Positions 50-31,747 of a stretch of 32,000 nt of DNA are shown in pieces. The stretch is from Candidatus Saccharimonadota bacterium (GTDB lineage: Bacteria > Pseudomonadota > Gammaproteobacteria > Enterobacterales > Enterobacteriaceae). A program made the translations under genes and the position numbers. Numbering within the stretch: the stretch's first letter is position 1; every line of letters begins with the position of its first letter. Where the stretch lies: assembly GCF_004296515.1 (NCBI RefSeq), contig NZ_AP018160.1, forward strand, positions 1 to 32,000. Reading direction: 5' to 3'. Under the pieces are notes generated by a model, which was not told the origin of the DNA, ran no database searches, and saw nothing but the letters and a program-made list of their open reading frames with translations.

Positions 50-1168
50 ATGAAATTTTCTATATTATGTAATACATTTATAAAAATGTTAAAAAAAACA
101 AATATAGTATTTAATAATAATTCATTACAAATTTTTAAGAATATTTTAATATTAATAAATAATAAAGAAATAAAAATAATAAGTATGAATTCATTAACAA
201 AAATAATAACAAAAGATAATTTAATAGAATCTAATATAAATAAAATTATTAAAATAAATATATCTGCAAAAAAAATATTTGATATATGTAAAAAAATAGA
301 TAAGAATTCAATATTATATTTTAATAAAGAAAACAATTTTTTAATATTAAAATCTAATAAGTCAATATTTTCTATATCAACAATTATAAATTGTAATATT
401 TTAAATGAATTTAATAAACATTATGATAATGATTATAAAATATGCATATCATGTTTATCATTAAAAAACTTAATAAAAAAAACTTATTATTCAATAGGTA
501 TAGAAGATACAAGAAAATATTTAAATGGAATGTTATTTGAAATTTATGATAATAAAATAAAAACAATATCTACTGATGGTCATAGATTATCAATATCAGA
601 ATTGAAAATTAATTTTGAAATAAAAAATAAAAATAAATATATCTTAACAAAACAAGGAGTTAATGAATTAATTAAATATTTAGATAATATTAATAATAAT
701 ATATATATAAAATTTGATAATAAAAATATATATATAAAATCAGAAAATTCATTATTTATATCTAGATTATTAAATGAAAATTTTCCAGAATATAATGATA
801 TAATATCTAAAGAATTAAAATATTCTATAAAATTAAATAAAAATGTATTAATAGAAGTTATATTAAGAATATCATCTATTTCAAATGATAAATTTTGTTT
901 GATTAGATTAAATTTTAATAATAATAAATTAAATATAAGTTCATTTAATTCAGATCAAGAAAAATCTGAAGAATATATAGATATAGATTATTTATTTGAT
1001 GATGATATTTTAATTTTATTAAATAGTACTTATTTAATAGAATCTTTATCATCAATAGATGAAGAATTTATATTATTTAAATTTATTAATAATAAATCTT
1101 GTATTTGTATAGAAGAATTTAGTAATATAAATAATAAACATATTATTATGCCAATATATTCTTTATAA
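50..1168 (+). CDS. dnaN: DNA polymerase III beta sliding clamp
   Basis: The 372-aa ORF is collinear with E. coli DnaN. It starts MKF and has AKKIFDICKK (E. coli ARKFFDICRG). The blocks YLNGMLFE and TDGHRL are identical. gyrB follows 4 nt downstream. TAA stop. Confidence 0.9.
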   Translation: MKFSILCNTFIKMLKKTNIVFNNNSLQIFKNILILINNKEIKIISMNSLTKIITKDNLIESNINKIIKINISAKKIFDICKKIDKNSILYFNKENNFLILKSNKSIFSISTIINCNILNEFNKHYDNDYKICISCLSLKNLIKKTYYSIGIEDTRKYLNGMLFEIYDNKIKTISTDGHRLSISELKINFEIKNKNKYILTKQGVNELIKYLDNINNNIYIKFDNKNIYIKSENSLFISRLLNENFPEYNDIISKELKYSIKLNKNVLIEVILRISSISNDKFCLIRLNFNNNKLNISSFNSDQEKSEEYIDIDYLFDDDILILLNSTYLIESLSSIDEEFILFKFINNKSCICIEEFSNINNKHIIMPIYSL

Positions 1169-5145: not shown

Positions 5146-5910
5146 TTATTTATATAATTTATTTTTTAAACATTTTTCTATAAAAATACTTAAATTTCCA
5201 TTTAATACTTCTTTTATATTATTTGTTTCTAATCCTGTTAAATTATCTTTTATTATTGAATCATCTAATATATATGATCTTATTTGTCTACCCCAACTTA
5301 TATCTGATTTTAAATCTTCTATTTTTTTATTATTTTTAATTTTATTATTTAATTTTATATTATATATTTTATTTTTTAATCTTTTTAAAGCATTTTTTTT
5401 ATTTATGTTCTGATATTTACTATCATTAGATTTTACATTTATACCAGTAGGAATATGAAAAACTCTAACAGCTGAATTTGTTTTATTTATATGTTGACCT
5501 CCATTTCCAGAAGATTTACAAAAACTAAATTTTATATCATTATTATTTAAATTAACATCTAAATTTTCATCTATATTTTTTTTAATATAAACTGAACTAA
5601 AAGATGTATGTCTCTTACCAGAATCAAAAGGACTTTTTCTAACTAACCTATGTATTCCATTTTCTGTTTTAAGCCAACCGTATGCATATTTTCCTTCTAC
5701 ATAAATTAATACAGATTTTTTTCTTTTTATAAAAAACTTATCTTCAGATAATATTTTATATTTTAAATTTTTTATTTTTATCCATTTTATATACATTCTA
5801 AATAAAATATTTACCCAATCTTGAGATTCTATACCACCAGATCCAGAAATTATACTAATAAAACATGAAATATCATCAGAATTTGTAAAGAAATCATTAT
5901 ATTTATTCAT
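5146..5910 (-). CDS. prfB: peptide chain release factor 2, N-terminally truncated (domain 1 absent)
   Basis: 254 aa. It has GSGGIESQDW (E. coli GSGGTEAQDW), YAYGWLKTENGIHRLVRKSPFD with the RF2-specific SPF tripeptide, and the GGQ motif in SGNGGQHINKTNSAVR. Alignment begins at about residue 112-118 of the 365-aa E. coli RF2. An in-frame TAA lies 4 codons upstream of the ATG, and recJ ends 27 nt upstream. Confidence 0.9.
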   Translation of the reverse strand: MNKYNDFFTNSDDISCFISIISGSGGIESQDWVNILFRMYIKWIKIKNLKYKILSEDKFFIKRKKSVLIYVEGKYAYGWLKTENGIHRLVRKSPFDSGKRHTSFSSVYIKKNIDENLDVNLNNNDIKFSFCKSSGNGGQHINKTNSAVRVFHIPTGINVKSNDSKYQNINKKNALKRLKNKIYNIKLNNKIKNNKKIEDLKSDISWGRQIRSYILDDSIIKDNLTGLETNNIKEVLNGNLSIFIEKCLKNKLYK

Positions 5911-12338: not shown

Positions 12339-13268
12339 ATGATAAATCATATTCCTGTAATGTTAGATGAAGTAATAGAAAATTTAAATATAATAAAAGA
12401 TGGAATATATATAGATTGTACATTTGGTTGTGGTGGTCATTCTATGGGTATACTTAAAAAATTAGGTAAAAATGGTAAATTAATATCTATAGATAAAGAT
12501 ATAGAATCTAAAACGTTTTCAAATAAAATAACTGATAATAGATTTATATTTATAAATGATAATTTTTCAAATATTAATAAATATTTATTAAATTTTAATC
12601 TTGTTGGAAAAATAAATGGAATTTTATTAGATTTAGGTTTATCCAGAAATCAAATATCTGATTCTACTAGAGGATTTTCATTTTTAAATAATGGACCACT
12701 AGACATGAGAATGAATAAAACTAAAGGATTAAAAGCGTATGATTTTATAAATAATGAATCTGAACAAGTAATATATAATGTTTTAAAAAAATTTGGAGAA
12801 GATAAAAATAGTAAAAAAATAGCTAGAAATATAATTATAAATAGAAATAAAAAAAAAATATTAAAAACATTTGATTTAAAAAAAATAATTTTAAATTCAT
12901 CTAATAATATAAAATCATTAGCTAGATGTTTTCAAGCAATAAGAATTTATATAAATAATGAAATTAAAGAGCTTAATTGTATATTAAATTTAGTACCAAA
13001 TATTTTATGTTTTAATGGAATATTATCTATAATAACATTTCATTCTATAGAAGATAAAATTGTTAAAAATTTCTTTAAAATATCTAATGAAGAACATATT
13101 TTTTTAAATAAAATTCCTATTACAAATATAGAATATATAAATATTAAAAATAAATTAATAAAAATGATAGAAATTAATAAGATTAAACCTTCTTTAAATG
13201 AAATTAAAAATAATAATTCTTCTAGAAGTGCAATATTAAGAGTATTCAAAAAAATAAATAAATTTTAA
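12339..13268 (+). CDS. rsmH: 16S rRNA (cytosine1402-N4)-methyltransferase RsmH/MraW
   Basis: 309 aa. The N-terminus HIPVMLDEV...YIDCTFGCGGHS matches RsmH, as do LLDLGLS, FSFLNNGPLDMRM and ITFHSIEDKIVK. It occupies the first position of the dcw cluster. Confidence 0.92.
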   Translation: MINHIPVMLDEVIENLNIIKDGIYIDCTFGCGGHSMGILKKLGKNGKLISIDKDIESKTFSNKITDNRFIFINDNFSNINKYLLNFNLVGKINGILLDLGLSRNQISDSTRGFSFLNNGPLDMRMNKTKGLKAYDFINNESEQVIYNVLKKFGEDKNSKKIARNIIINRNKKKILKTFDLKKIILNSSNNIKSLARCFQAIRIYINNEIKELNCILNLVPNILCFNGILSIITFHSIEDKIVKNFFKISNEEHIFLNKIPITNIEYINIKNKLIKMIEINKIKPSLNEIKNNNSSRSAILRVFKKINKF

Positions 13269-13271
13269 AAT

Positions 13272-14747
13272 ATGATTTTAAATTATTTATTAAAGCCTTG
13301 GATAACTAAAAATGTACCTAATATAAATATATTAAATTTAACATTAAATAGCAAAAATATTAAAAATAATAGTTTATTTTTTTCTATAAATGGATATTTA
13401 GAAAAAGGAAGTAAATATATACAAGAATCAATAAATAATGGATCTATAGCTATAATAATTGAAACAGAAAATATATATGAACATGGAAAAATAATTAATA
13501 ATAAAATTCCTATAATATTTTTTTATAAATTAAAAATATTTATTTCAGAAATATCAGGAAGATTTTATAATAATCCATCTAATAAATTAAATCTTATTGG
13601 AATAACAGGAACTAATGGTAAAACTACAGTATCATATATTTCTTCTCAATTAATTAATTTAATAAATAAATACAATAAAAGTGCTATTATTGGAACTTTA
13701 GGTAATGGTATAATACCAAATTTAATAGAAACTAAAAATACTACAGATTCTCCTATTGATTTACAAGAAACTTTGTATAAATTTTATAAAAATAATATTG
13801 ATACAGTATTTTTAGAAGTATCTTCTCATAGTATATTACAAAATAGAATAAAAAATTTAAAATTTAAATATACAGTATTTACAAATATATCACATGAACA
13901 TCTAGATTTTCATAAAAATATGTTTTCTTATAAAAAATCTAAATATAAACTATTTAATGAATATAAAGTTATTAATTCCATAATAAATGTAGATAATAAA
14001 TTTGGAAAGAAAATATCTAATAAAATAAAATGTACATCAGTGTCTTTATTTAAGAAAATATATATTAAATGTAGATCTATATATGTAAATATAAAAAAAA
14101 TAAAATTCATTAAATATAAAAGTTACTTAGAAATTATAATAAATAATATAAAATATAATATATTATTAAATTTTATAGGATATTTTAATGTAAATAATTT
14201 TATTATATCTTTAGTAACACTTATTGAATTAGGATATAAAGTTAATGATATAATTAAAGTTAGTTCATTAATAAATTTACCGCCAGGAAGAATGGAAATA
14301 ATAAAATTTAATAAAATAGATATAATTATAGATTATGCTCATACTCCTGATGCAATAATTAATATATTATTAACAATAAGAAAAATATGTATTGGAAAAA
14401 TATGGTGTATATTTGGATGTGGTGGTAATAAAGATAAACTTAAAAGACCAATAATGGGTAAATTGGCTTATAAATATTCAGATTATGTAATATTAACAAG
14501 TGATAATACAAAAAACGAAAATATAAATGATATTATAAATGATATTATTAAGTATATTAATTATAAAAATAATATAAATATTATTATTGATAGAGAAAAA
14601 GCTATAAAATTTTCAATATGTAATTCTAATAAATATGATATAATATTAATTTTAGGAAAAGGTCATGAAAAATTTCAAATTATAGGTAATGATTTATTTA
14701 ATTTTTCTGATAAGGAAATAGTTTTAAAATTAATAAATAAATTATAA
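13272..14747 (+). CDS. murE: UDP-N-acetylmuramoyl-L-alanyl-D-glutamate--2,6-diaminopimelate ligase
   Basis: 491 aa. The N-terminus LLKPWI parallels E. coli LLAPWV. The Mur ligase P-loop is GITGTNGKTT. DYAHTPDA and TSDNTKNE (E. coli TDDNPRTE) are present. The dcw position also fits. Confidence 0.9.
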   Translation: MILNYLLKPWITKNVPNINILNLTLNSKNIKNNSLFFSINGYLEKGSKYIQESINNGSIAIIIETENIYEHGKIINNKIPIIFFYKLKIFISEISGRFYNNPSNKLNLIGITGTNGKTTVSYISSQLINLINKYNKSAIIGTLGNGIIPNLIETKNTTDSPIDLQETLYKFYKNNIDTVFLEVSSHSILQNRIKNLKFKYTVFTNISHEHLDFHKNMFSYKKSKYKLFNEYKVINSIINVDNKFGKKISNKIKCTSVSLFKKIYIKCRSIYVNIKKIKFIKYKSYLEIIINNIKYNILLNFIGYFNVNNFIISLVTLIELGYKVNDIIKVSSLINLPPGRMEIIKFNKIDIIIDYAHTPDAIINILLTIRKICIGKIWCIFGCGGNKDKLKRPIMGKLAYKYSDYVILTSDNTKNENINDIINDIIKYINYKNNINIIIDREKAIKFSICNSNKYDIILILGKGHEKFQIIGNDLFNFSDKEIVLKLINKL

Positions 14748-16121
14748 ATGATTAATTGTACATTAAAAGAAATAAGTAATATTGTAAATGGTAAATTAAT
14801 AGGAAAAAATAAAATAATAAATTTTATATCTATAAATTCAAAAAATATAAAAAATAAATGTTTATTTATAGCATTTAAAGGTATCAATTTTGATTCTCAT
14901 ATTTTTGTTGAAGATTCTATAAAAAATGGAGCTATAGCAATATTAGTGTCAAAATATTTTGTTAATATATCTATTCCTCAAATAATAGTAAATAACGTTA
15001 ATAATTCTTTTTTTTCTATAGCAAAATTTATAAGAAAAAAATCTAATTCTTATATTATAGCTATAACTGGTTCATGTGGTAAAACTTCTATTAAAGAAAT
15101 GACATTTTGTATATTAAAAAATATAAGAAAAAGTTATTTAACTAATAAAAATGAAAATAATATAATTGGTATAAGTTTAACATTATGTAATATAGAATAT
15201 TATAATATGTTTGTTATATTAGAAGTAGGAACAGATGGATTAAATCAAATAAATAATTTAATTGACATAATAGAACCAAATATAGTTTTAATAAGTAATT
15301 TATTTATATCTCATTTTTCAAAATTAAATAATTATTATAATTTAATACGTGCAAAAGGAGAAATATTAGAAAAATTATCTTTATGTAATAGAGTTATTTT
15401 AAATTTCGATAGTAATAATTGGAATTATTGGAAATTTATATCTTTTAATAAAATACCTTTATTTTTTTCTTTAAATAAATTAAATAATGTTGATTTTTAT
15501 TCAGAAAATATAATTACATATAATTTTAAATCTAGTTTTATATTAAATAGTCCAATAGGTAAAATAAAAATAAATTTAAATGTACCTGGAATTAATAATA
15601 TATATAATTCAATTGCGGCTTCTGCTATATCTATATTATTAGGTTCAAATCTTAATAATATACAAAAATCTTTATTTAAATTTAAATCAATAAATAATAG
15701 ATTAAAACCTATATTTATAAGTAAAAATAAAATAATATTAGATGATACATATAATGCAAATTTAGGATCATTTATATCTTCATCTAATTTATTATCTAAT
15801 ATTAATGGATATAAAGTTATTATTATAGCTGATATCCTAGAATTAGGAAATGCAGAAGTTTTTTTACATAAAAGAATGGGTAAAATTATAAATAATTTAA
15901 ATATAGATAAAGTATTAAGTATTGGTAAATTATCATATTATATTACTTTAAATTGTAAAGGTGAACATTTTTATAATATAAATAATTTAATTGAAAGAAT
16001 AGTTTTTCTAATAAAAAAATATAATAATATTGTAATTTTAATTAAAGGATCTAGAAAAAATAGACTTGATGAATTAATAAAAATATTAATAAATAAAAAA
16101 AATGATAACATTATTAATTAA
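14748..16121 (+). CDS. murF: UDP-N-acetylmuramoyl-tripeptide--D-alanyl-D-alanine ligase
   Basis: 457 aa. The N-terminus MI.CTLKEISNIVNGKL parallels E. coli MISVTLSQLTDILNGEL. The P-loop is ITGSCGKTS, followed by DDTYNAN and IKGSR. The ATG directly abuts the murE stop. Confidence 0.9.
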   Translation: MINCTLKEISNIVNGKLIGKNKIINFISINSKNIKNKCLFIAFKGINFDSHIFVEDSIKNGAIAILVSKYFVNISIPQIIVNNVNNSFFSIAKFIRKKSNSYIIAITGSCGKTSIKEMTFCILKNIRKSYLTNKNENNIIGISLTLCNIEYYNMFVILEVGTDGLNQINNLIDIIEPNIVLISNLFISHFSKLNNYYNLIRAKGEILEKLSLCNRVILNFDSNNWNYWKFISFNKIPLFFSLNKLNNVDFYSENIITYNFKSSFILNSPIGKIKINLNVPGINNIYNSIAASAISILLGSNLNNIQKSLFKFKSINNRLKPIFISKNKIILDDTYNANLGSFISSSNLLSNINGYKVIIIADILELGNAEVFLHKRMGKIINNLNIDKVLSIGKLSYYITLNCKGEHFYNINNLIERIVFLIKKYNNIVILIKGSRKNRLDELIKILINKKNDNIIN

Positions 16122-17167
16122 AGAATTTAATTTTAAATTTTTTAATATTTTATTAAAATCTATATTTAGTTTTTTTACATCTTTTCTTTTTTTTTTTTAT
16201 TATTTATTATAAATGTATATACTTATTTAAAAAATTTAATTTAAAACAAAAGAATAGATTAAATTCATTTCATGTTGAAAAATGTAATACATTTACAATG
16301 GGTGGATTAATTATATTATTATCTAGTTTATTATCAATAATACTTTGGTCAGATATATATAATATATATACATTATATTTTATAATATTTTTAATTTCTT
16401 ATGGAATTATAGGATTTATTGATGATTATATAAAAATATATAATAAATATTATTGTGGTTTTAAAATACTAGAAAAATATTTTATACAATCAATATTAAC
16501 ATTAATATTAATACTTTTTTTATATAAAACAGAAAACATTTTATTTATAGATAGAATATTTATTCCTTTTTTAAAAAAAAAAAATATTTATATAAATAAA
16601 TTTATTTATTTTTTATTAAGATATTTTACATTAATGGGTGCTATAAATTCTGTTAATATAACTGATGGATTAGATGGATTAGCTATTATATCTATTATTT
16701 TATCTTTATCAACATCAATAATTATTTCCATTATTTATAGTAATGAAATTTTATCTAATATTTTTAATACACTTTATATTAAAAATGCATATGAAATTAT
16801 TAATTTATCTTCGGCAATTATAGGATCTTCATTAGGATTTTTATGGTTTAATTCATATCCATCTTATATATTTATGGGAGATACAGGATCATTATCATTA
16901 GGTGGAATATTAGGATTAATTTTTATATTATTAAATAGTGAATTATTATTAATATTATCAGGTGGAATATTTGTTATAGAATTATTATCAATAATATTAC
17001 AAATAATTAGTTATAAAATTTTTAAAAAAAGAATATATTTAATGGCTCCTATACACCATCATTATGAAATAAAAGGAGTTCATGAATCAAAAATTGTTTT
17101 TAGATTTTCTATAATATCATTTATATTTAACTTATTATGTTTATTAATTATTTTTATTAGAAAGTAA
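16102..17167 (+). CDS. mraY: phospho-N-acetylmuramoyl-pentapeptide transferase, interrupted by a frameshift in a T12 tract
   Basis: The ORF-track entry 16298-17167 starts at the MGG that corresponds to about residue 74 of E. coli MraY. It carries VNITDGLDGLA, MGDTGSLSLGG and APIHHHYE. Its frame stays open back to 16157 and encodes ...KFNLKQKNRLNSFHVEKCNTFTMGG (E. coli [27 protein letters not shown]). The missing N-terminus (MITLLIKEFNFKFF...SIFSFFTSFLFFF) is in the adjacent frame, from the ATG at 16102 to the TAA at 16210-16212. The two frames overlap at T12 (16187-16198). Confidence 0.85.
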
Positions 17168-17170
17168 ATT

Positions 17171-18496
17171 ATGTTTAAAAATAAAAATATATTTATAATA
17201 GGATCTGGAATAACAGGAATTTCTTGTATTAATTATTTATTAAAAAAGGAATGTAATTTAACATTAATAGATACTAGATTAAATCCTCCTAATTTAAATT
17301 TAATTCCTGATAATATAAACACATTTTTTGGTAAAAATGTAAATTTTAATATGTTATTAAAATCAGATTTAGTTGTAATAAGTCCTGGATTTGATTATAA
17401 ATTAATAAATAATAATATATTAAATAAAATCAATATAACTAGTGATATAGAATTATTTTGTAAAGAAAAACCTAAATCTAAAATAATTGCTATAACCGGA
17501 ACTAATGGCAAAAGTACTGTATCTACTTTAATATTTAAAATTTTAAAAAATAATAATTATTTAGTTTACTTGGGTGGTAATATAGGTAATCCTGTACTAA
17601 ATTCTTTAAATATAGATTATGATTTTTATGTATTTGAATTATCTAGTTTTCAACTTGAAATTTTAAATAACTTAAAATCTTTCTCATCATCTATATTAAA
17701 TATAGGTTTTGATCATTTAGATAGACATATAAATATTAAAAATTATATAAATAGTAAATTAAAAATATTTAATAATTCTTATTATTGTGTAATTAATATT
17801 GATGATAATTTATCATATCCTAATAAAATTAATTTGAATTCTAAATATGAATTTTTTGGAATAAATAGTGGAAATTATCATTTAAAATTTATTAAAGATA
17901 AAATATATTTGATGTATAAAAATGATTTAATTATTGATAGTTCTAAATTAAAAATATTTGGAATACATAATTATATTAATGTATTATCTTCATTATCTTG
18001 TATAAAATATATAAATTTAAATTTTAATAAAGTAATAAATACTATAAAAAAGTTTAAACCATTAAATCATAGATTAAATTTAATATTAAATATAAATAAT
18101 ATAACTTGGATAAATGATTCAAAATCTACAAATATATCAAGTACTATTTCTGCTATAAATAGTATAAAATTTTATAGTACTATACATTTAATAATTGGTG
18201 GATATAGAAAAAATATAGATTTTAATTTATTAAAATCTTTTTTAAAAAATAAAAATATAAAAATTTATTGTTTTGGAATAGATGGTAAATATATAAGTAA
18301 TTTATTTAATAAAAAATCTATTTATTATTATGATTTAGAATCTATTGTATATGAAATATATAATAAAGTAAAAATTAATGATGTAGTTCTTTTTTCTCCA
18401 GCTTGTTCTAGTATTGATAATTATAATAATTATATTGATAGAGGAAATCATTTTATTAAAATTGTAAATAAATTATATAAAATAAATGATAACTAA
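17171..18496 (+). CDS. murD: UDP-N-acetylmuramoylalanine--D-glutamate ligase
   Basis: 441 aa. It has an N-terminal Rossmann-like IIGSGITG, the P-loop ITGTNGKST, and NDSKSTN (E. coli DSKATN). It overlaps the murG start by 11 nt. Confidence 0.9.
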   Translation: MFKNKNIFIIGSGITGISCINYLLKKECNLTLIDTRLNPPNLNLIPDNINTFFGKNVNFNMLLKSDLVVISPGFDYKLINNNILNKINITSDIELFCKEKPKSKIIAITGTNGKSTVSTLIFKILKNNNYLVYLGGNIGNPVLNSLNIDYDFYVFELSSFQLEILNNLKSFSSSILNIGFDHLDRHINIKNYINSKLKIFNNSYYCVINIDDNLSYPNKINLNSKYEFFGINSGNYHLKFIKDKIYLMYKNDLIIDSSKLKIFGIHNYINVLSSLSCIKYINLNFNKVINTIKKFKPLNHRLNLILNINNITWINDSKSTNISSTISAINSIKFYSTIHLIIGGYRKNIDFNLLKSFLKNKNIKIYCFGIDGKYISNLFNKKSIYYYDLESIVYEIYNKVKINDVVLFSPACSSIDNYNNYIDRGNHFIKIVNKLYKINDN

Positions 18497-19550
18497 AAAA
18501 AATATAATTATTGCTACTGGTGGAACAGGGGGGCATGTAATATCTGGAATATGTATATCAAATTATTTAATTTATTTAAAAAATAATGTAACTTGGGTTG
18601 GTTCTAAAAATAGAATGGAATCATATTTAATTTCAGATAATAATATAAATATAGATTATATAAGCATATTAAATATTAATACTAAATCTTTTTTTGATAA
18701 AATTAAATTTTATTATTCTTTATTAAAATCTATTTATGAATCTTGTAAAATAATATCTTATAGAAAACCAGATATTATTATAGGAATGGGTGGGTATATA
18801 TCTATACCTGTATGTATAGCAGGATGGATAAAAAACATACCTATAATAATACATGAACAAAATTGTAAAATTGGATTATCAAATAAAATTTTATACTTTA
18901 TATCAAAAAAATTTTTATCTGGATTTAATTTAAAAAATAAAAATTATATATATGTCGGAAATCCTGTAAGAAAAAATATTATTAATATATCTAAACCAGA
19001 AATAAGATTAAAAAATAGAAAAGGTCCTATAAGAATATTGATACTGGGTGGAAGTCAAGGATCATATTTTATAAATAAAAATATTCCATTAGTAATTAAA
19101 AAATTAAATAATGTTTTAATTTGGCACATATGTGGAAAAAATAATTATAATTTTGTGTTTGATATATACAATAAATTATTATGTTATAATAAAGTTTATT
19201 TAATTAATGATTTTATTTTAGATATATATAAAGCATATTATTGGTCTGATTTAATAATTTGTAGGTCAGGTGCTTTAACTATTAGTGAAATATTATGTGT
19301 AGGTTTACCATCTATAATTATTCCATTTATTGGAAAAGATAAACATCAGTATTATAATTCTTTATTTTTAGATAAAATTGGTGTTACTAAAATTTTTAAT
19401 GAAAATGAATTTGATATAGATTTAATTTATAATTATATTTCTAATTTAGATAGAAATAAATTATTAGAATTATCTATAAGATGTAGAAAATATTATAATT
19501 TTAATTCTATAGAAAATATAATAAAAGAAATTTATAATTTATTTATTTAA
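18486..19550 (+). CDS. murG: UDP-GlcNAc:undecaprenyl-PP-MurNAc-pentapeptide GlcNAc transferase
   Basis: 354 aa. Matching blocks are TGGTGGHV, IIHEQN and CRSGALTISE. The dcw position fits. Confidence 0.9.
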   Translation: MITKKNIIIATGGTGGHVISGICISNYLIYLKNNVTWVGSKNRMESYLISDNNINIDYISILNINTKSFFDKIKFYYSLLKSIYESCKIISYRKPDIIIGMGGYISIPVCIAGWIKNIPIIIHEQNCKIGLSNKILYFISKKFLSGFNLKNKNYIYVGNPVRKNIINISKPEIRLKNRKGPIRILILGGSQGSYFINKNIPLVIKKLNNVLIWHICGKNNYNFVFDIYNKLLCYNKVYLINDFILDIYKAYYWSDLIICRSGALTISEILCVGLPSIIIPFIGKDKHQYYNSLFLDKIGVTKIFNENEFDIDLIYNYISNLDRNKLLELSIRCRKYYNFNSIENIIKEIYNLFI

Positions 19551-19555
19551 TAAAA

Positions 19556-20983
19556 ATGAATAATAAAAATATTTTGGATTTAAATAATATAAAAAAAATA
19601 CATTTTATAGGAATTGGTGGAATATGTATTAGTGGTATAGCAAAAATATTTTTAAAAAAAGGATATATTATAACTGGATCTGATATTATTAAAAATAATA
19701 TTATAAAAGATTTAGATAATATTGGTATTAAAATATATATTGGACATAATAAAAATAATATTTATAATTCTGATATTATTATATTTTCTAGTGCAATAAA
19801 ACCTGATAATGTAGAAATTTTAGAGGCTATTAATTTAAATATACCTATATTAAGTAGAGGTGAAATTTTAAATAAATTAACTAAAAATTATTATTCTATA
19901 TGTATAGCAGGTAGTCATGGAAAAACTACTATTACATCTATAATATCTTTTATATTTATTAATTCTGGATATAATATAACTTTTTTATCTGGAGGGATAT
20001 TAAAAAATTTTAATAGTAATTATAATTTAGGAAATAGTAAATATTTTGTAATAGAATCTGATGAAAGTGATTCCACTTTTTTAAAACTAAATCCTTCTGT
20101 ATCAATAATATCTAATATAGATAATGATCATTTAATTTTTTATAATAATGATTTTAATAATTTAAAAAACTCTTTTATTAAATTTATAAATAATGTTCCT
20201 AAAAATGGATTATCGATTATATGTATAGATAATAAAATTTTAAAAGATATATTATATAATAATAATTTTGTTTGTAAAATAATAACATATGGATTTGATG
20301 ATAGTGCTGATGTAGTTATTACTGAGTATTTTCAATATAATTTTTTTAGTAAATTTCTATTAAAAAGTAATAAATATAAAGATTTTAATTTTTCTATTAA
20401 AATTAATTATTTACCAGGAAAATATAATGCTTTAAATATAACAGCGTCTGTAATATTAACAATATTAGAAGGAATAGATCATAAATTAGTTATTAAATCC
20501 TTGTTAGATTTTAAAGGTATAAATAGAAGGTTTGAAATTTTAAAATATAAATTTATTAATAAAAATTTATATAATAAAAAAATATTTTTAATAAGTGATT
20601 ATGGACATCATCCATCAGAAATAAATTCTGTAATACAAAATATAAGATTAGGATGGAGTGATTATAAAATTATTATGATATTTCAACCTCATAGATATAC
20701 TAGAACAAATAGTTTACTATTTGATTTTATAAAAATTTTAATAAAAGTTGATTATTTAATATTATTAGATATATTCTCAGCAGGAGAAGATAATTTATAT
20801 AATATAAGTAGTAAAAATATATTTTTAAAGATTAAACTATATAAAAAAAATAATATTTTTTACCTTAAAAATATAAATAATATTTCAAATATATTAAATA
20901 AATTAATTACATATAAAAATATTATTTTAATACAAGGAGCTGGAAATATAAATGATATAATATTAAATAATTTAAATCTTTAA
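19556..20983 (+). CDS. murC: UDP-N-acetylmuramate--L-alanine ligase
   Basis: 475 aa. Matching blocks are IHFIGIGGICISGIA, the P-loop IAGSHGKTTIT, ESDESDS, YGHHPSEI and FQPHRYTRT. Confidence 0.9.
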   Translation: MNNKNILDLNNIKKIHFIGIGGICISGIAKIFLKKGYIITGSDIIKNNIIKDLDNIGIKIYIGHNKNNIYNSDIIIFSSAIKPDNVEILEAINLNIPILSRGEILNKLTKNYYSICIAGSHGKTTITSIISFIFINSGYNITFLSGGILKNFNSNYNLGNSKYFVIESDESDSTFLKLNPSVSIISNIDNDHLIFYNNDFNNLKNSFIKFINNVPKNGLSIICIDNKILKDILYNNNFVCKIITYGFDDSADVVITEYFQYNFFSKFLLKSNKYKDFNFSIKINYLPGKYNALNITASVILTILEGIDHKLVIKSLLDFKGINRRFEILKYKFINKNLYNKKIFLISDYGHHPSEINSVIQNIRLGWSDYKIIMIFQPHRYTRTNSLLFDFIKILIKVDYLILLDIFSAGEDNLYNISSKNIFLKIKLYKKNNIFYLKNINNISNILNKLITYKNIILIQGAGNINDIILNNLNL

Positions 20984-21000
20984 TTATATAAATTAATTTC

Positions 21001-23514
21001 ATGTTTAATTATTTTTCTAAATATATAAATAAATATAAAAATCAGCATATATTAAATTCAATAAAAAAAAAAGTAGAAATTATTAATTTTATTAGTAAAG
21101 ATATAGAAAAATTAAGTGATAAAGAGTTATCAAATAAAACTAATGAATTTATATTTAGATTAAATAAAGGAAAGGATATAGATTCTATATTATTTGAATC
21201 TTTTGCTGTTGTAAAAGAATCTATAAATAGAATATTTGGAATTAAATTATTTGATGTTCAAATAATAGGTGGAATTGTATTACATAATAAATGTATAGCT
21301 GAAATGTCTACTGGTGAAGGTAAAACTTTAACTTCTACATTGCCAGCTTATTTTAATTCATTATATAAAAAAGGAGTTCATATAGTTACTATGAATGATT
21401 ATTTAGCTAAAAGAGATGCAGAAAATAATATTCCTTTATTTAAATTTTTAGGAATTACTGTTGGTATTAATTTGAGTAATTCATCTTTTGAAGAAAAAAA
21501 AAAATCTTATTTATGTGATATAACATATGGAACAAATAATGAATATTGTTTTGATTATTTAAGAGATAATTTAGTCATGAATTATAATGATAAGATTCAA
21601 AGATCTTTAAATTATGCAATAATAGATGAAATAGATTCTATATTAATAGATGAAGCAAGAACTCCATTAATAATATCAGATCAAAATAAAAATAATTCTT
21701 CTTTATATTTAAAAATTAATTCATTAATAAAATATTTAATAAATAATGATATATATTTTGAAAAAGATAAATATTTTATTTTAGATTTAAAATTTAAACA
21801 AATAACTTTAACAGAAAATGGTTTTAAATTAATAGAAAAATTAATGATTAATTTAAATTATATTAAAAATGAAAATTTATTATATCTTCCAGAAAATATT
21901 ATATTAGTACATCATTTTATAATATCATTAAAAGCTCATTTATTATTTAAAATTAATATAGATTATATTATAAAAGATAATAAAGTTATTATTGTTGATG
22001 AGAATACTGGTAGGGCAATAGAAAAAAGAAGATGGTCTGATGGATTACATCAAGCAATAGAGGCTAAAGAGAATTTAGAAATACAAAATGAAAGTTATAA
22101 TTTAACATCAATAACATTTCAAAGTTATTTTAAATTATATAATAAATTATCTGGAATGACTGGAACCGCTTATTCTGAAAAAGAAGAATTTAAATATATA
22201 TATAATCTTGATACTATAGTAATACCAACTAATAAATTAATTATAAGAAAAGATTTTCCAGATTTAATATTCTTAACAGAAAAAGATAAAATAAAAGCAA
22301 TTATAAATGATATAATAAAATGTCATAATAAAAATCAACCTGTATTAGTTGGTACAATATCTATAGAAAAATCTGAATTTATATCTAATGAATTAAAGAA
22401 AATAGGTATAAAACATAATATATTAAATGCAAAATATAATGAAGCAGAAGCAGAAATAATATCTCAAGCTGGAAAACCTGGTTCTATTACAATAGCAACA
22501 AATATGGCTGGTAGAGGTACAGATATTATTTTAGGTGGAAATTTTAATAATGAAATAAAAAATTTAAAAAATAAAGATATTTCTATAATTAATAAAATTA
22601 AAAATAATTGGAAATTAAATAATAATATTGTAATAAAATCTGGAGGATTACATATAATAGGAACCGAAAGACATGAATCTAGAAGAATAGATAATCAACT
22701 TATAGGAAGATCTGGAAGACAAGGTGATCCTGGTTCTTCTAAATTTTATTTATCTATGGAAGATCAACTTATTAAAATGTTTATTTCAGATAAAATGTTG
22801 GATTTAATAAGTAAGTTAGATTTTTCTAAATTAGAACATCCTTGGATAGATATTTTAATAAGAAATTCTCAAAAAAAAATAGAAAATAGAAATTTTAATA
22901 TTAGAAAACAATTAATAATGTATGATGATATATATAATAATCAAAGAAATATTATATATAAAATAAGAGATTATTTTTTAAGTATTGATGATATTTATAA
23001 TATTGTGAAATTATTTATAGATGAAATTATAAATAATATTTTATTAAAATTTATTCCAATAAATTCTAATAAAAAAAAGTGGGATATTGAAAAATTAAAT
23101 AATTTTTTAATTAAAGATTTTAATTTTTTAGATTTATTATTAAATAATATAGATATTTATAAAATTAATAATGATTGTTTAATTAGAGATTTAATATATA
23201 AAAAAATAATAGAAAATTATAATAATTTTTTAAAATATAAAAATATATTAAGTACTATAAAAAGTAGTATTTTTATAAAAAAATTAGATTTATTATGGAG
23301 AGAACATTTAAATAATTTAGATAATTTACATAAAGGTATATATTTAAGAAGTTATGCTCAGAAAAATCCTAGACAAGAATTTAAATTAGAATCTTTTAAT
23401 TTATTTAATAATATGTTATTTTCATGGAAATTTGAAAGTTTAGTTGTATTAAATAAATTTATTTTTAATAATAAATCTTCTTTGGATGAAAATTTGATAA
23501 ATAATATTTATTAA
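21001..23514 (+). CDS. secA: preprotein translocase ATPase SecA (no C-terminal zinc-finger tail)
   Basis: 837 aa. Matching blocks are FDVQIIGGIVLH, AEMSTGEGKTL, DEIDSILIDEARTPLIIS, ATNMAGRGTDI and RIDNQLIGRSGRQGDPGSSKFYLS. The C-terminus has no Cys-rich CPCGSGKKYKQCHG-type motif. Confidence 0.95.
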   Translation: MFNYFSKYINKYKNQHILNSIKKKVEIINFISKDIEKLSDKELSNKTNEFIFRLNKGKDIDSILFESFAVVKESINRIFGIKLFDVQIIGGIVLHNKCIAEMSTGEGKTLTSTLPAYFNSLYKKGVHIVTMNDYLAKRDAENNIPLFKFLGITVGINLSNSSFEEKKKSYLCDITYGTNNEYCFDYLRDNLVMNYNDKIQRSLNYAIIDEIDSILIDEARTPLIISDQNKNNSSLYLKINSLIKYLINNDIYFEKDKYFILDLKFKQITLTENGFKLIEKLMINLNYIKNENLLYLPENIILVHHFIISLKAHLLFKINIDYIIKDNKVIIVDENTGRAIEKRRWSDGLHQAIEAKENLEIQNESYNLTSITFQSYFKLYNKLSGMTGTAYSEKEEFKYIYNLDTIVIPTNKLIIRKDFPDLIFLTEKDKIKAIINDIIKCHNKNQPVLVGTISIEKSEFISNELKKIGIKHNILNAKYNEAEAEIISQAGKPGSITIATNMAGRGTDIILGGNFNNEIKNLKNKDISIINKIKNNWKLNNNIVIKSGGLHIIGTERHESRRIDNQLIGRSGRQGDPGSSKFYLSMEDQLIKMFISDKMLDLISKLDFSKLEHPWIDILIRNSQKKIENRNFNIRKQLIMYDDIYNNQRNIIYKIRDYFLSIDDIYNIVKLFIDEIINNILLKFIPINSNKKKWDIEKLNNFLIKDFNFLDLLLNNIDIYKINNDCLIRDLIYKKIIENYNNFLKYKNILSTIKSSIFIKKLDLLWREHLNNLDNLHKGIYLRSYAQKNPRQEFKLESFNLFNNMLFSWKFESLVVLNKFIFNNKSSLDENLINNIY

Positions 23515-23517
23515 TTT

Positions 23518-25005
23518 ATGAAGATAAATATTTTAAATAAATTAAGATTATCTTATAAAAAAATAATAAATAATAATTCAGAATATATATTTAATACAAA
23601 TAAAAAAAAAAATAATTTTTCTATTACATTTAACAAAAATATACTAATAGATTTTTCTAAAAATATTATTAATAACAATATAATAAATTTATTAGTTAAA
23701 TTATTTAATAAATTTAATTTTTTAAATTTAAAAAATAATAATTATTTAAGTTATAAAGAAATATTTTATTTAGATACTATTTTAATAAATAAAATAAATT
23801 TTTTATATAATAAACTTATTTATAACTCTTTTAATATTATAGAAAATATAGTAAATATAGGTCATTTAAAATATAAATATGAATTTGATTTTATATCTAA
23901 TGTATTAAAAGAATATAAAGTAAATAATTATAAATTTTATTATTTATCTTATTTAAATTCAGATATTATAAATATAATAAAAAATTTTAATTTAAAAAAA
24001 ACTATTTTTATAATTTCATATGATACATATGAAGATTATAAATTAATAGAAATTATTAATTTTATAATAAATAGAATTAATCTAGAAATAGATAATATTA
24101 ATAATTATATAAATACTAATATTATTATATTAACATCTTTAAATTTAAAAAATAGAATATTTAATATAAATACTAATAATATTATATATATAAATACTAA
24201 TATAAATATTAATACTAATTCTATATATTATATAAGTATGATTTTGTTAATATATTTAGGTAATTTAAATTTTAATAATTTTATTAAAGGTATTAAAAAT
24301 ATAAATAATAATTTTTTATATGAAAAAAAAATATATAATAATATATCAGTTTTATTATCTTTAATAGATATTTGGTATTTAATATTTTTTAAATTTAGAA
24401 TTAATTTAATGTTTTTAGATTATTATTTAAACAATTTTATAAATTATTATATAAATTTACATTTATTTTATAAAAATATTAGTTTTTATAAAAATATAAT
24501 ATTAGGATCTTCAGATATATATATTCAAAATTTTTTATATAAAACATTACTTAATAATAAAAATTTAAATTGTGAATTTATTTTTTTTTGTAAAAATAAT
24601 AATTTTTTATTTGAATATAATCATAATAATTTTATTTCTGAATCATTTTATAGATCTAGATCTATGTTTTTTATAAATAATAATATAAATAATATAAAAA
24701 ATTTTTTATTTAATAAAAAAAGAAAAAATTATGAATTTAATAATAATATAAATATTATTCCAAATAATTTTATTCTTTTAAATAAGTTAAATCCTAATAA
24801 TTTAGGTATTTTAATTTATATTTATAAATATAGAATTTTTTTAAAAAATATTTTAATAAGCAATATTAAAAATGAAAAATTAAATTTTAATTATTTAGAT
24901 AATATAATAGATATTTTAGATATAAAATTAGAAAATCAAGAAACTAATTACGATACTTCAACTAATGAATTAATAAATTTTTATAAAAAAAATAGGTATA
25001 TATAA
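23518..25005 (+). CDS. pgi: glucose-6-phosphate isomerase homologue, highly eroded (catalytic motifs not recognisable)
   Basis: 495 aa. Five collinear blocks match E. coli Pgi. FSITFNKNILIDFSKN matches FSATFDDQMLVDYSKN. VNIG is identical. ISVLLSLIDIWYLIFF matches LPVLLALIGIWYNNFF. LGILIYIYKYRIF matches LGALIALYEHKIF. YDTSTNELINFYKKNR matches HDSSTNGLINRYKAWR. Confidence 0.7.
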   Translation: MKINILNKLRLSYKKIINNNSEYIFNTNKKKNNFSITFNKNILIDFSKNIINNNIINLLVKLFNKFNFLNLKNNNYLSYKEIFYLDTILINKINFLYNKLIYNSFNIIENIVNIGHLKYKYEFDFISNVLKEYKVNNYKFYYLSYLNSDIINIIKNFNLKKTIFIISYDTYEDYKLIEIINFIINRINLEIDNINNYINTNIIILTSLNLKNRIFNINTNNIIYINTNININTNSIYYISMILLIYLGNLNFNNFIKGIKNINNNFLYEKKIYNNISVLLSLIDIWYLIFFKFRINLMFLDYYLNNFINYYINLHLFYKNISFYKNIILGSSDIYIQNFLYKTLLNNKNLNCEFIFFCKNNNFLFEYNHNNFISESFYRSRSMFFINNNINNIKNFLFNKKRKNYEFNNNINIIPNNFILLNKLNPNNLGILIYIYKYRIFLKNILISNIKNEKLNFNYLDNIIDILDIKLENQETNYDTSTNELINFYKKNRYI

Positions 25006-26268
25006 TTATATTTTTTTCATCATTTCAAAAAATTCATTATTTGTTTTAGTGATTGATAATTTATTTATTAAAAACTCTATTACTTCTACTTCATTCATTG
25101 AGTTAAGTATTTTTCTTAATATCCACATTTTTTTTAATTCATTAGAGTCTATAAGCAATTCTTCTTTTCTAGTTCCAGATCTATTATAATCTATTGCTGG
25201 AAATATTCTTTTTTCTGATATTTTTCTAGATAAATGTAATTCCATATTTCCAGTTCCTTTAAATTCTTCATATATTACTTCATCCATTTTAGAACCTGTA
25301 TCTATTAATGCAGTAGCTATTATAGTTAAACTTCCGCCTTCATACATATTTCTAGCAGCTCCAAAAAATTTTTTTGGTCTATTTAATGCATTTACATCTA
25401 TACCACCTGTTAATACTCTTCCAGAAGATGGGATTATAGAATTGTATGCTCTTGTTAATCTTGTTATAGAATCTAACAAAATTATAACATCTTTTTTATG
25501 TTCTACTAATCTTTTAGCTCTTTCTATAACCATTTCAGATACTTGTACATGTCTTGAATATGGTTCATCAAATGTTGATGAAATAACATTATTATTACCT
25601 ATTATTTTTTGCATTTCTGTTACTTCTTCTGGTCTTTCGTCTATTAATAATACTATTAATATACAATCATTATGATTTAATAATATACTATTAGCTATAT
25701 TTTGTAATAAAATTGTTTTTCCAGCTTTAGGTGGTGCAACTATTAATCCTCTTTGTCCTTTACCTATAGGAGCTGATAAATCTAATATTCTTGTTGTTAT
25801 ATCTTCTATGGAATTATTACCTTTTTCCATTTTTAATCTTGAATTTGCATGTAATGGAGTTAAATTTTCAAATAGTATTTTATTATAATAATTTTCTGGT
25901 TTATCAAAATTTATTTCATCTATTTTTAATAATGCAAAATATTTTTCTCCATCTTTTGGAGGTCTTATTTTTCCAGATATAGTATCTCCTGTTTTTAGAT
26001 TAAATTTTTTTATTTGACTAGGAGAAATATATATATCATCAGGACCAGCTAAATATGAACTATTTACTGAACGTAAAAATCCAAATCCATCTTGCATAAT
26101 TTCTAAAATTCCATCTCCAAATATATCTTCTCCATTTTTAGAATGTTGTTTTAATATATTAAATATAATATCTTGTTTATGCATTTTAGATAAATTTTCT
26201 AATTCTATTTTTTCTCCAATATTTATTAATTCAGATATTGATTTATTTTTTAGTTTAGTTAAATTCAT
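25006..26268 (-). CDS. rho: transcription termination factor Rho
   Basis: 420 aa and very close to E. coli Rho. Matching blocks are [51 protein letters not shown] and the Walker A PPKAGKT. Its stop codon abuts the pgi-like stop with 0 nt spacer. Confidence 0.97.
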
Positions 26269-26523: not shown

Positions 26524-26527
26524 TAAA

Positions 26528-26599
26528 CAGGGATGGAGAGATTTGAACTCCCATCATCCAGTTTTGGAGACTGGCGATCTTCCATTGATCTACATCCCT
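26528..26599 (-). tRNA. tRNA-Trp, anticodon CCA
   Basis: The reverse complement is AGGGATGTAGATCAATGGAAGATCGCCAGTCTCCAAAACTGGATGATGGGAGTTCAAATCTCTCCATCCCTG. It is collinear with E. coli tRNA-Trp, with anticodon loop CTCCAAA. No CCA is encoded. Confidence 0.92.
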
Positions 26600-26610
26600 A
26601 TTTATTTATA

Positions 26611-26727
26611 TAAATGATATTTTCCTACTCTAACATAGAATAATCTATACTACCATCGGCACTATGATATTTCACTTCTGAATTCGGAATGGGATCAGGT
26701 GTTTCCATCACGTTATGAATATCAAAT
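26611..26727 (-). rRNA. rrf: 5S ribosomal RNA
   Basis: The reverse complement contains CACCTGATCCCATTCCGAATTCAGAAGTGAAAT and GCCGATGGTAGT...GAGAGTAGG-like blocks collinear with E. coli 5S. The ends, placed by alignment and helix I pairing (TGATATT/AATATCA), are accurate to a few nt. Confidence 0.92.
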
Positions 26728-26776
26728 ATATATATTTATAAATTTTATATTATAAAATTATACTTTTCAATACTTA

Positions 26777-29681
<2,905 letters not shown>

Positions 29682-29696
29682 ATAAGTATAAAATAT

Positions 29697-29768
29697 TGTC
29701 TCTTAGGGGATTCGAACCCCTATTATTGCCTTGAAAGGGCAATGTCCTAACCTTTAGACGAAAGAGAC
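29697..29768 (-). tRNA. tRNA-Glu, anticodon UUC
   Basis: The reverse complement is GTCTCTTTCGTCTAAAGGTTAGGACATTGCCCTTTCAAGGCAATAATAGGGGTTCGAATCCCCTAAGAGACA. It is collinear with E. coli tRNA-Glu, with anticodon loop CTTTCAA. No CCA is encoded. It sits in the usual spacer-tRNA position 5' of the 23S gene. Confidence 0.93.
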
Positions 29769-29778
29769 GATAAATTTA

Positions 29779-31747
<1,969 letters not shown>

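Follow-up and report, generated by a model that had tools for sequence, protein, structure and literature searches.

The DNA analysed here, the window, is a stretch of 32,000 nucleotides (nt) at the beginning of contig NZ_AP018160.1 (assembly GCF_004296515.1) from Nardonella, the tyrosine-provisioning endosymbiont of Pachyrhynchus infernalis, the black hard weevil. At positions 23518..25005 of the forward strand it carries a single uninterrupted open reading frame (ORF) of 495 codons, with an ATG start and a TAA stop, that encodes a full-length homologue of glucose-6-phosphate isomerase (PGI) in which every catalytic residue has been replaced while the frame has been kept open. Judged from its sequence, the product is no longer able to interconvert glucose-6-phosphate and fructose-6-phosphate. 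The explanation that we favour, and to which we give about an even chance, is that the ORF is still translated, probably in coupling with the upstream gene secA, into a PGI-fold protein that is catalytically dead and is retained for some non-catalytic property under which much sequence drift can be tolerated. Loss of PGI activity by a symbiont is in itself unremarkable; the odd part is the persistence of the ORF.

The homology to PGI is supported by (i) a match to the Pfam family PF00342 (E=3e-19, 69.4 bits versus a gathering score of 22), aligning ORF residues 104-486 with profile positions 92-486; (ii) a phmmer search of the PDB sequences, which retrieved PGIs exclusively, with E-values down to 7.6e-20 and an additional short match near the N-terminus, at the DFSKN block; and (iii) a hidden Markov model (HMM) of 91 PGIs, which scores the ORF at 148.5 bits and the best of 1000 residue shuffles, the control for a composition artefact, at 6.7 bits. 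The ORF is collinear with PGI in one frame from residue 4 to residue 492. HMMER aligns a first domain, residues 4-70, with profile positions 8-74, after which profile positions 75-140 are squeezed into residues 71-104, leaving the N-terminal region about 32 residues short. An initial reading of the bare DNA (hereafter, the sequence-only reading) had proposed both the PGI homology and a deficit of about 30 residues in the N-terminal region, and it was right on both counts. The ORF falls below the cut-off of the PGI equivalog model (NCBIfam NF001211, 82.5 bits versus 492). Dozens of matches linking the ORF to unrelated Nardonella genes, with E-values down to 1e-20, appeared in tblastn searches run without low-complexity masking and composition correction; all of them vanish at default settings and were discarded.

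The protein is identical to a deposited 'hypothetical protein [endosymbiont of Pachyrhynchus infernalis]' (P0001), an exact database match found on two contigs. The genome of the P. infernalis Nardonella has been sequenced twice, from weevils collected in 2012 and 2018 (PMC11984157), and both independently sequenced genomes encode the identical protein. No statement about the gene was found in the Nardonella literature searched for pgi, glycolysis and pentose phosphate, a search covering papers other than the original genome description (PMC5635926). Within the ORF interval, Rfam detected no RNA family, and the sole ORF on the opposite strand measures 41 amino acids.

According to established PGI enzymology, a Glu serves as the base for proton transfer, a His and a Lys take part in ring opening, an Arg stabilises the ene-diol intermediate, and Ser/Thr residues bind the phosphate; the catalytic base resides in the QQxxMESNGK motif and is Glu357 in rabbit numbering. 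The correspondence of these positions in the ORF was established with three alignments, comprising (i) a HMMER pairwise alignment to a crystallised PGI, (ii) a MAFFT alignment of 92 sequences, the ORF and 91 PGIs, and (iii) a profile alignment. All three concur on the motif correspondences, and the posterior probabilities of the profile alignment are near-maximal across the motifs; MAFFT and the profile alignment place the gaps near K319-I321 differently, with F317 at the position of the Glu in both. In place of the catalytic Glu, His, Lys and Arg, the ORF has Phe, Asn, Asp and Asn, respectively; of the four phosphate-binding Ser/Thr, three have given way to Tyr, Tyr and Asp, with T170 as the sole survivor, and two acidic residues are now present in the former phosphate pocket (Table 1). 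Among the 91 PGIs, 87 columns reach a conservation of at least 85%; the ORF keeps 26 of these, none of them catalytic, and none of the six active-site motif patterns tested is present. The only nearby Glu, His or Lys that might act as substitutes are H315 and K319, both located at non-catalytic columns. The sequence-only reading had described the sugar-phosphate loop and the SKTFTT, MESNGK, GQHAF and ELGK motifs as replaced, and each of these motif readings is reproduced in the three alignments; the profile alignment, a check of the kind that it called for, and the independently made multiple alignment put no catalytic or phosphate-binding residue in place except one Thr.

Table 1. Motifs of the PGI-like ORF, with a homopolymer inside it and the two flanking genes. 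Motif rows give the canonical PGI sequence followed by that of the ORF.
Feature	ORF residues	Position in the window	Strand	Remarks
LIDFSKN, N-terminal PGI block (canonical (L)DYSKN)		23644..23664	+	kept; D45 in a 95% and S47 in a 90% conserved column
IGIGGSDLGP to IGHLKYKYEF	114-123	23857..23886	+	sugar-phosphate loop; phosphate-binding Ser replaced by Y119
IASKTFTTQET to ISYDTYEDYKL	166-176	24013..24045	+	Ser replaced by Y168, Lys by D169, Thr by D173; T170 kept
GGRYS to NINTN	230-234	24205..24219	+	intermediate-stabilising Arg replaced by N232
YLQQxxMESNGK to YYINLHLFYKNI	310-321		+	catalytic Glu replaced by F317
YLQQxxMESNGKS to YYINLHLFYKNIS		24445..24483	+	catalytic Glu replaced by F317
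GxxGTNGQHAF to GSSDIYIQNFL	336-340 (GQHAF to IQNFL)	24505..24537	+	G330 and Q337 kept; catalytic His replaced by N338
YEH to YKY				
FDQWGVELGK to NEKLNFNYLD	452-461	24871..24900	+	ring-opening Lys replaced by D461
A(11) homopolymer inside the ORF		23602..23612	+	one of eight A/T runs of at least 7 bases
secA		21001..23514	+	upstream neighbour; stop 3 nt before the ORF ATG (TAA TTT ATG), same frame
rho		25006..26268	-	convergent downstream neighbour; rho and ORF stop codons abut, no spacer

The ORF is also the compositional outlier of the window. Its GC content of 8.4% (GC1 0.107, GC2 0.115 and GC3 0.030 for the three codon positions) compares with 12-29% for the other 18 genes and with about 16% for the window outside the ribosomal RNA (rRNA) genes, making it the most A+T-rich gene present; six residues, Asn, Ile, Lys, Phe, Tyr and Leu, account for 79% of the product, and alanine is entirely missing. 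Good family scores are obtained for all of the 18 other genes, of which 17, prfB being the exception, pass at least one curated NCBIfam cut-off. The second most degraded gene, dnaN (50-1168, forward strand), with 12.4% GC and 67% of its product made up of the same six residues, passes its equivalog model at 188.5 versus 137.65 bits; given that dnaN is still above the cut-off, the ORF lies far beyond the normal range of decay of this genome. In addition, PGIs from AT-rich symbionts, including those of the 263-kb genome CP043978.1 (gene GC 14%), Makana, the reed-beetle symbionts and Westeberhardia, score 579-815 bits on the equivalog model, with 81-85 of the 87 conserved columns preserved. Since these PGIs are well conserved in equally AT-rich symbionts, AT pressure alone is not the cause of the decay, and the extreme compositional decay is specific to the ORF and not genome-wide.

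The intact frame is the second side of the finding. At the composition of the ORF, stop codons would arise at random with a density of 0.12 per codon, and the probability that 493 codons stay open is about 3e-28. The CP043978.1 pgi, in which TGA-Trp codons were first recoded, served as the starting point for simulations of neutral decay under AT-biased mutation spectra with an equilibrium GC of 5% and 8.8% and A-T transversions from 0 to 0.3 relative to GC-to-AT transitions; runs were halted once 26 of the 87 conserved columns remained and comprised substitutions only, without indels, which renders them conservative. The decayed genes accumulated a mean of 19-34 in-frame stops, with a minimum of 9, and the frame was open in 0 of 400 replicates. 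In the ORF itself, a single substitution would turn 36% of the codons into a stop, and eight slippage-prone A/T runs reach at least 7 bases, and the frame is nonetheless intact. Because no simulated frame remained open, something has removed the nonsense and frameshift mutations, and the intact frame is beyond explanation by neutral decay. These figures uphold three statements of the sequence-only reading, namely that (i) the frame is among the most A+T-rich coding sequence; (ii) a random open frame of this length is vanishingly unlikely, for which its estimate of about 1e-20, from one stop in ten codons, proved less extreme than the computed value; and (iii) the frame has been kept translatable while the enzyme chemistry was lost, as borne out by the residue replacements together with the simulations. 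As a separate observation, the deposited protein of the CP043978.1 pgi (L003 6001-7689) carries Trp at seven in-frame TGA codons; this organism thus reads TGA as Trp (genetic code 4).

The conserved columns have not been lost evenly. The ORF keeps 5 of 43 active-site motif columns versus 21 of 44 other conserved columns, whereas simulations combining drift with the purging of nonsense mutations keep about 11-12 motif and 14 other columns, and retain five or fewer motif columns in 0 of 400 replicates. The split is also visible among residues with G/C-requiring codons, kept at 3 of 35 motif versus 9 of 26 other positions (Fisher p=0.02) and, at a 70% conservation threshold, at 3 of 40 versus 14 of 44 (p=0.007). 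All five Gly of the ORF occupy columns that are 98-100% Gly among PGIs (the Gly columns kept being more conserved than those lost, Mann-Whitney p ~4e-4), its two Pro occupy 96-97% Pro columns, and its single Trp a 91% Trp column. The motif/scaffold split and the Gly/Pro/Trp pattern, neither of which drift with nonsense purging reproduces, both match what would be expected if fold-critical residues were retained and the active site released from constraint. An AlphaFold2 model of the ORF, computed with an alignment of real PGIs, displays a mean predicted local distance difference test (pLDDT) of 86.8 and a predicted template modelling score (pTM) of 0.89; it superposes on PGI crystal structures with template modelling (TM) scores of 0.79-0.84, on a model that leans on that same alignment.

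In the explanation that we favour, the ORF would be the direct, full-length descendant of the symbiont's own pgi, still translated, probably by termination-reinitiation coupling to the secA stop immediately upstream. Selection would act on the full-length PGI-fold polypeptide for a putative non-catalytic property, such as a structural or binding role, and the isomerase step would be either dispensable to a tyrosine-provisioning symbiont or covered by the host. Host aminotransferases have been reported to enter Nardonella cells (PMC10816905). At the secA-ORF junction (23512-23520), the two genes share the reading frame and are separated only by TAA TTT, and either termination-reinitiation or readthrough of the stop into a fusion protein is conceivable. 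As is characteristic of a pseudoenzyme, the ORF is clearly homologous to an enzyme family but lacks its catalytic residues, and its frame is free of the stops and frameshifts by which a pseudogene is recognised. The 'repurposed pseudoenzyme scaffold' of the sequence-only reading is the favoured option, on the grounds of the better retention of scaffold than of active-site columns, the Gly/Pro/Trp pattern, and the structural superposition that the same reading had called for; the accompanying constraint on the sequence is weak at best. That the PGI fold was recruited to a new non-catalytic role in the Pachyrhynchus-Nardonella lineage and kept for millions of years after the loss of the active site, within a 226-kb genome, is a tentative and somewhat doubtful extension.

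Several observations weigh against this explanation. The GC content of the ORF is close to that of intergenic DNA (8.8%), and simulated neutral drift of the amino acids, in which purging is restricted to nonsense mutations, yields the same GC1/GC2/GC3 pattern. Under the same simulations, the number of hydrophobic columns kept (100 of 114) falls among the simulated means of 96-103, and the residual PGI-HMM score of 148 bits is approximately matched, the simulations averaging 61-126 bits and reaching up to 179. The excess of GC1 and GC2 over GC3 and the hydrophobic pattern were consequently dropped as evidence of selection, since drift with nonsense purging gives both. Sequence-level constraint is thus weak at best, most positions being near-neutral, the motif/scaffold and Gly/Pro/Trp patterns aside. 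The confidence of the AlphaFold model is driven by the real-PGI alignment, and it speaks for compatibility with the fold, not for foldability. The ORF is not preceded by a Shine-Dalgarno sequence; most window genes are likewise without one, and this typical absence was set aside as an argument on selection.

The comparative evidence points in the same direction. An exhaustive phmmer search of 1.84 billion representative proteins returned the ORF protein itself, followed by PGIs of about 25% identity, with no orthologue and with no PGI of Nardonella-like composition or provenance among the matches. A word-indexed search recovered the protein and three canonical symbiont PGIs, again with no orthologue, and an AT-rich-PGI profile produced no weevil-symbiont PGI among the 120 matches listed, a weak negative given that a divergent one could rank lower. 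With no orthologue available and an identical protein in both P. infernalis strains, the ratio of nonsynonymous to synonymous substitution (dN/dS) cannot be estimated. By tblastn, no pgi was found at the secA/rho loci syntenic with the window in the Nardonella of Rhynchophorus, Euscepes and Sipalinus, the search being confined to these loci. In the Rhynchophorus symbiont (NardRF), the only strain retrieved by a secA query, groEL follows directly after secA; the Euscepes symbiont, retrieved with that of Sipalinus by a Rho query, displays the order groES-groEL-tRNAs-rho-16S-23S-5S-ibpA-mscS-secA, with every interval accounted for; and in the Sipalinus symbiont, the rRNA operon and tilS come after rho. 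Further high-scoring Rho matches (P0193, P0196, P0200 and P0238) were rejected as belonging to unrelated bacteria or symbionts. From the lack of pgi at the syntenic loci of three Nardonella, it would follow that the genus does not need the protein, and the ORF appears, as far as these sequences reach, confined to the Pachyrhynchus lineage.

Many of these points would suit a late-stage relic, a gene that has lost its function, plays no role as a protein and drifts towards deletion with a frame merely not yet broken. Such a relic would be at home as the most degraded gene of the window, with the GC content of intergenic DNA; drift plus nonsense purging would account for its composition, hydrophobic pattern and HMM score; three other Nardonella genomes have no pgi at the corresponding syntenic sites, no Nardonella PGI occurs among the protein-search matches, and the deposited annotation is merely that of a hypothetical protein. 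We nevertheless regard a relic, though a serious competitor, as unlikely, considering that strict neutrality predicts the 19-34 stops and the 0 of 400 open frames reported above, with frameshifts at the eight long A/T runs to be added. In tiny genomes whose genes are spaced by 0-3 nt, useless DNA is deleted, yet here 1.5 kb has persisted between tight junctions. In addition, the motif/scaffold asymmetry and the Gly/Pro/Trp pattern are unexpected under uniform drift, and no mechanism is known by which an operon's final gene would be purged of nonsense mutations despite a useless product.

Alternatively, selection might act on translation itself or on the operon architecture and not on the protein, for example through secA-coupled ribosomes by which the mur-secA transcript would be translated at its 3' end as far as the convergent rho. 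The in-frame secA stop 3 nt before the ATG, the abutting stop codons of the ORF and rho, and the near-neutral behaviour of most of the amino-acid sequence would all agree with it; on the other hand, there is no co-oriented downstream gene to suffer polarity, the Euscepes and Rhynchophorus Nardonella have a secA without such an ORF after it, and the survival of the most invariant Gly, Pro and Trp is left unexplained, so that we hold this to be distinctly improbable. A working PGI with a rebuilt, non-canonical active site is scarcely credible. None of the exchanges of Glu for Phe, His for Asn, Lys for Asp and Arg for Asn is chemically equivalent, the phosphate site now carries Tyr, Asp and Asp, no Glu, His or Lys stands within 1-2 residues as a substitute, with H315 and K319 at non-catalytic columns, and functional PGIs of equally AT-rich symbionts keep all motifs. 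These losses have to be set against a predicted full-length PGI fold, searches in which no canonical PGI of the P. infernalis symbiont genome turned up, and the presence in the window of mur genes and aroA, whose pathways use fructose-6-phosphate-derived precursors. The 'very unusual PGI active site' that the sequence-only reading offered as its second option is accordingly disfavoured, given the acidic or bulky hydrophobic residues that now stand where phosphate would be bound and catalysis would take place. The preferred explanation remains a dead PGI-fold protein that is still translated.

Regarding the neighbourhood, the window comprises dnaN, gyrB, lysS, prfB, recJ, rpsA, aroA and serS, followed by the cell-wall cluster, the ORF and rho, with the ORF as the final gene of the co-oriented rsmH-mur-secA block; on its 3' side lie the convergent rho, tRNA-Trp, 5S, 23S, tRNA-Glu and groEL. 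The cell-wall/division cluster (12339-23514, forward strand) displays the order rsmH-murE-murF-mraY-murD-murG-murC-secA and is without ftsL, ftsI, ftsW, ddl, ftsQ/A/Z and lpxC. Within it, mraY (16122-17167, forward strand) begins at position 38 of the 321 positions of its profile and is preceded by a spacer of 176 nt with 10% GC, unusually long here; its N-terminus may be truncated or its start mis-set. NardRF contains an additional ORF of 380 amino acids just before secA (L001 6732-7874). At 26527-29768 (reverse strand), the 23S and 5S genes stand without an adjacent 16S gene, flanked by tRNA-Glu and tRNA-Trp, between groEL and rho, whereas the Euscepes and Sipalinus Nardonella carry a complete 16S-tRNA-23S-5S operon after rho (L005 11419-16345 and L006 11411-16295, respectively). 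Given that the rRNA arrangement and the gene order differ from those of the sister Nardonella, the PGI-like ORF sits at a rearranged junction. The GTG start listed for groEL (29779-31482, reverse strand) lies about 20 codons upstream of the beginning of the GroEL profile, and translation probably starts at an internal ATG instead. In prfB (5146-5910, reverse strand), the profile of release factor 2 (RF2) is matched only from position 111, with 299 bits versus a cut-off of 370, and recJ ends 27 nt upstream; the gene appears to encode an RF2 without its N-terminal domain, or to have an unconventionally encoded start.

Compared to canonical PGIs (PF00342, NF001211; E. coli 3NBU, human 1IAT and C. 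albicans 9FZT), the ORF preserves the full-length collinearity, the DFSKN block, a length within about 10% and a predicted fold at the TM scores given above, but it differs in the lost catalytic residues, three of the four phosphate ligands, the roughly 32 missing residues of the N-terminal region and the absence of alanine. The PGIs of reduced symbionts, including Candidatus Makana argininalis (P0002), the reed-beetle symbionts (P0003/P0312), CP043978.1 (P0004), Westeberhardia (P0314) and Buchnera, share with it the gammaproteobacterial type of PGI, tiny AT-rich genomes and a similar amino-acid bias; they keep all motifs together with 81-85 of the 87 columns, in contrast to the ORF, which is left with 26 columns and has lost all six of the motif patterns tested. 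Degenerate PGI-like proteins are known from the searches in (i) the beetle Aethina tumida (a protein labelled 'glucose-6-phosphate isomerase-like', XP_019876383.2; P0072/P0190), (ii) Geotalea sp. (WP_243372567.1; P0108), (iii) a Leucothrix metagenome-assembled genome (MGB1310376.1; P0006), and (iv) metagenomic sequences (P0008 and P0055). These are full-length with most or all of the six motifs altered, as in the ORF, but they come from unrelated lineages and have a normal composition; they may be PGI pseudoenzymes and are presumably paralogues beside a working PGI, whereas the Nardonella ORF, with its decayed composition, appears to stand alone as a PGI homologue in its genome. Their occurrence in unrelated organisms implies that dead PGIs as such are not unique.

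Minimal symbiont genomes such as Carsonella contain heavily degraded yet open genes. The ORF resembles such genes and pseudoenzymes in staying open after the loss of essential residues under drift and AT pressure, but its degradation is limited to one of the 19 window genes examined and hits every catalytic position; with all of these positions gone, the loss of catalysis is unambiguous and not a matter of degree.

The finding bears on how the metabolism of this symbiont is read from its genome, because minimal symbiont genomes tend to be taken as plain gene inventories, and a metabolic reconstruction would score this ORF as 'pgi present' on account of its PGI domain, though it is unable to act as an isomerase. 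The entry point of sugar phosphates into the symbiont consequently needs rethinking, either as fructose-6-phosphate or as a host-supplied step. More generally, the ORF provides a natural example of what keeps the frame of a dead enzyme open under drift and AT pressure, setting neofunctionalisation against selection on the frame only. If expressed, it would represent an accessible test case for the origin of a pseudoenzyme and, if recruitment of the PGI fold is true, a rare new function within a genome otherwise evolving only by loss.

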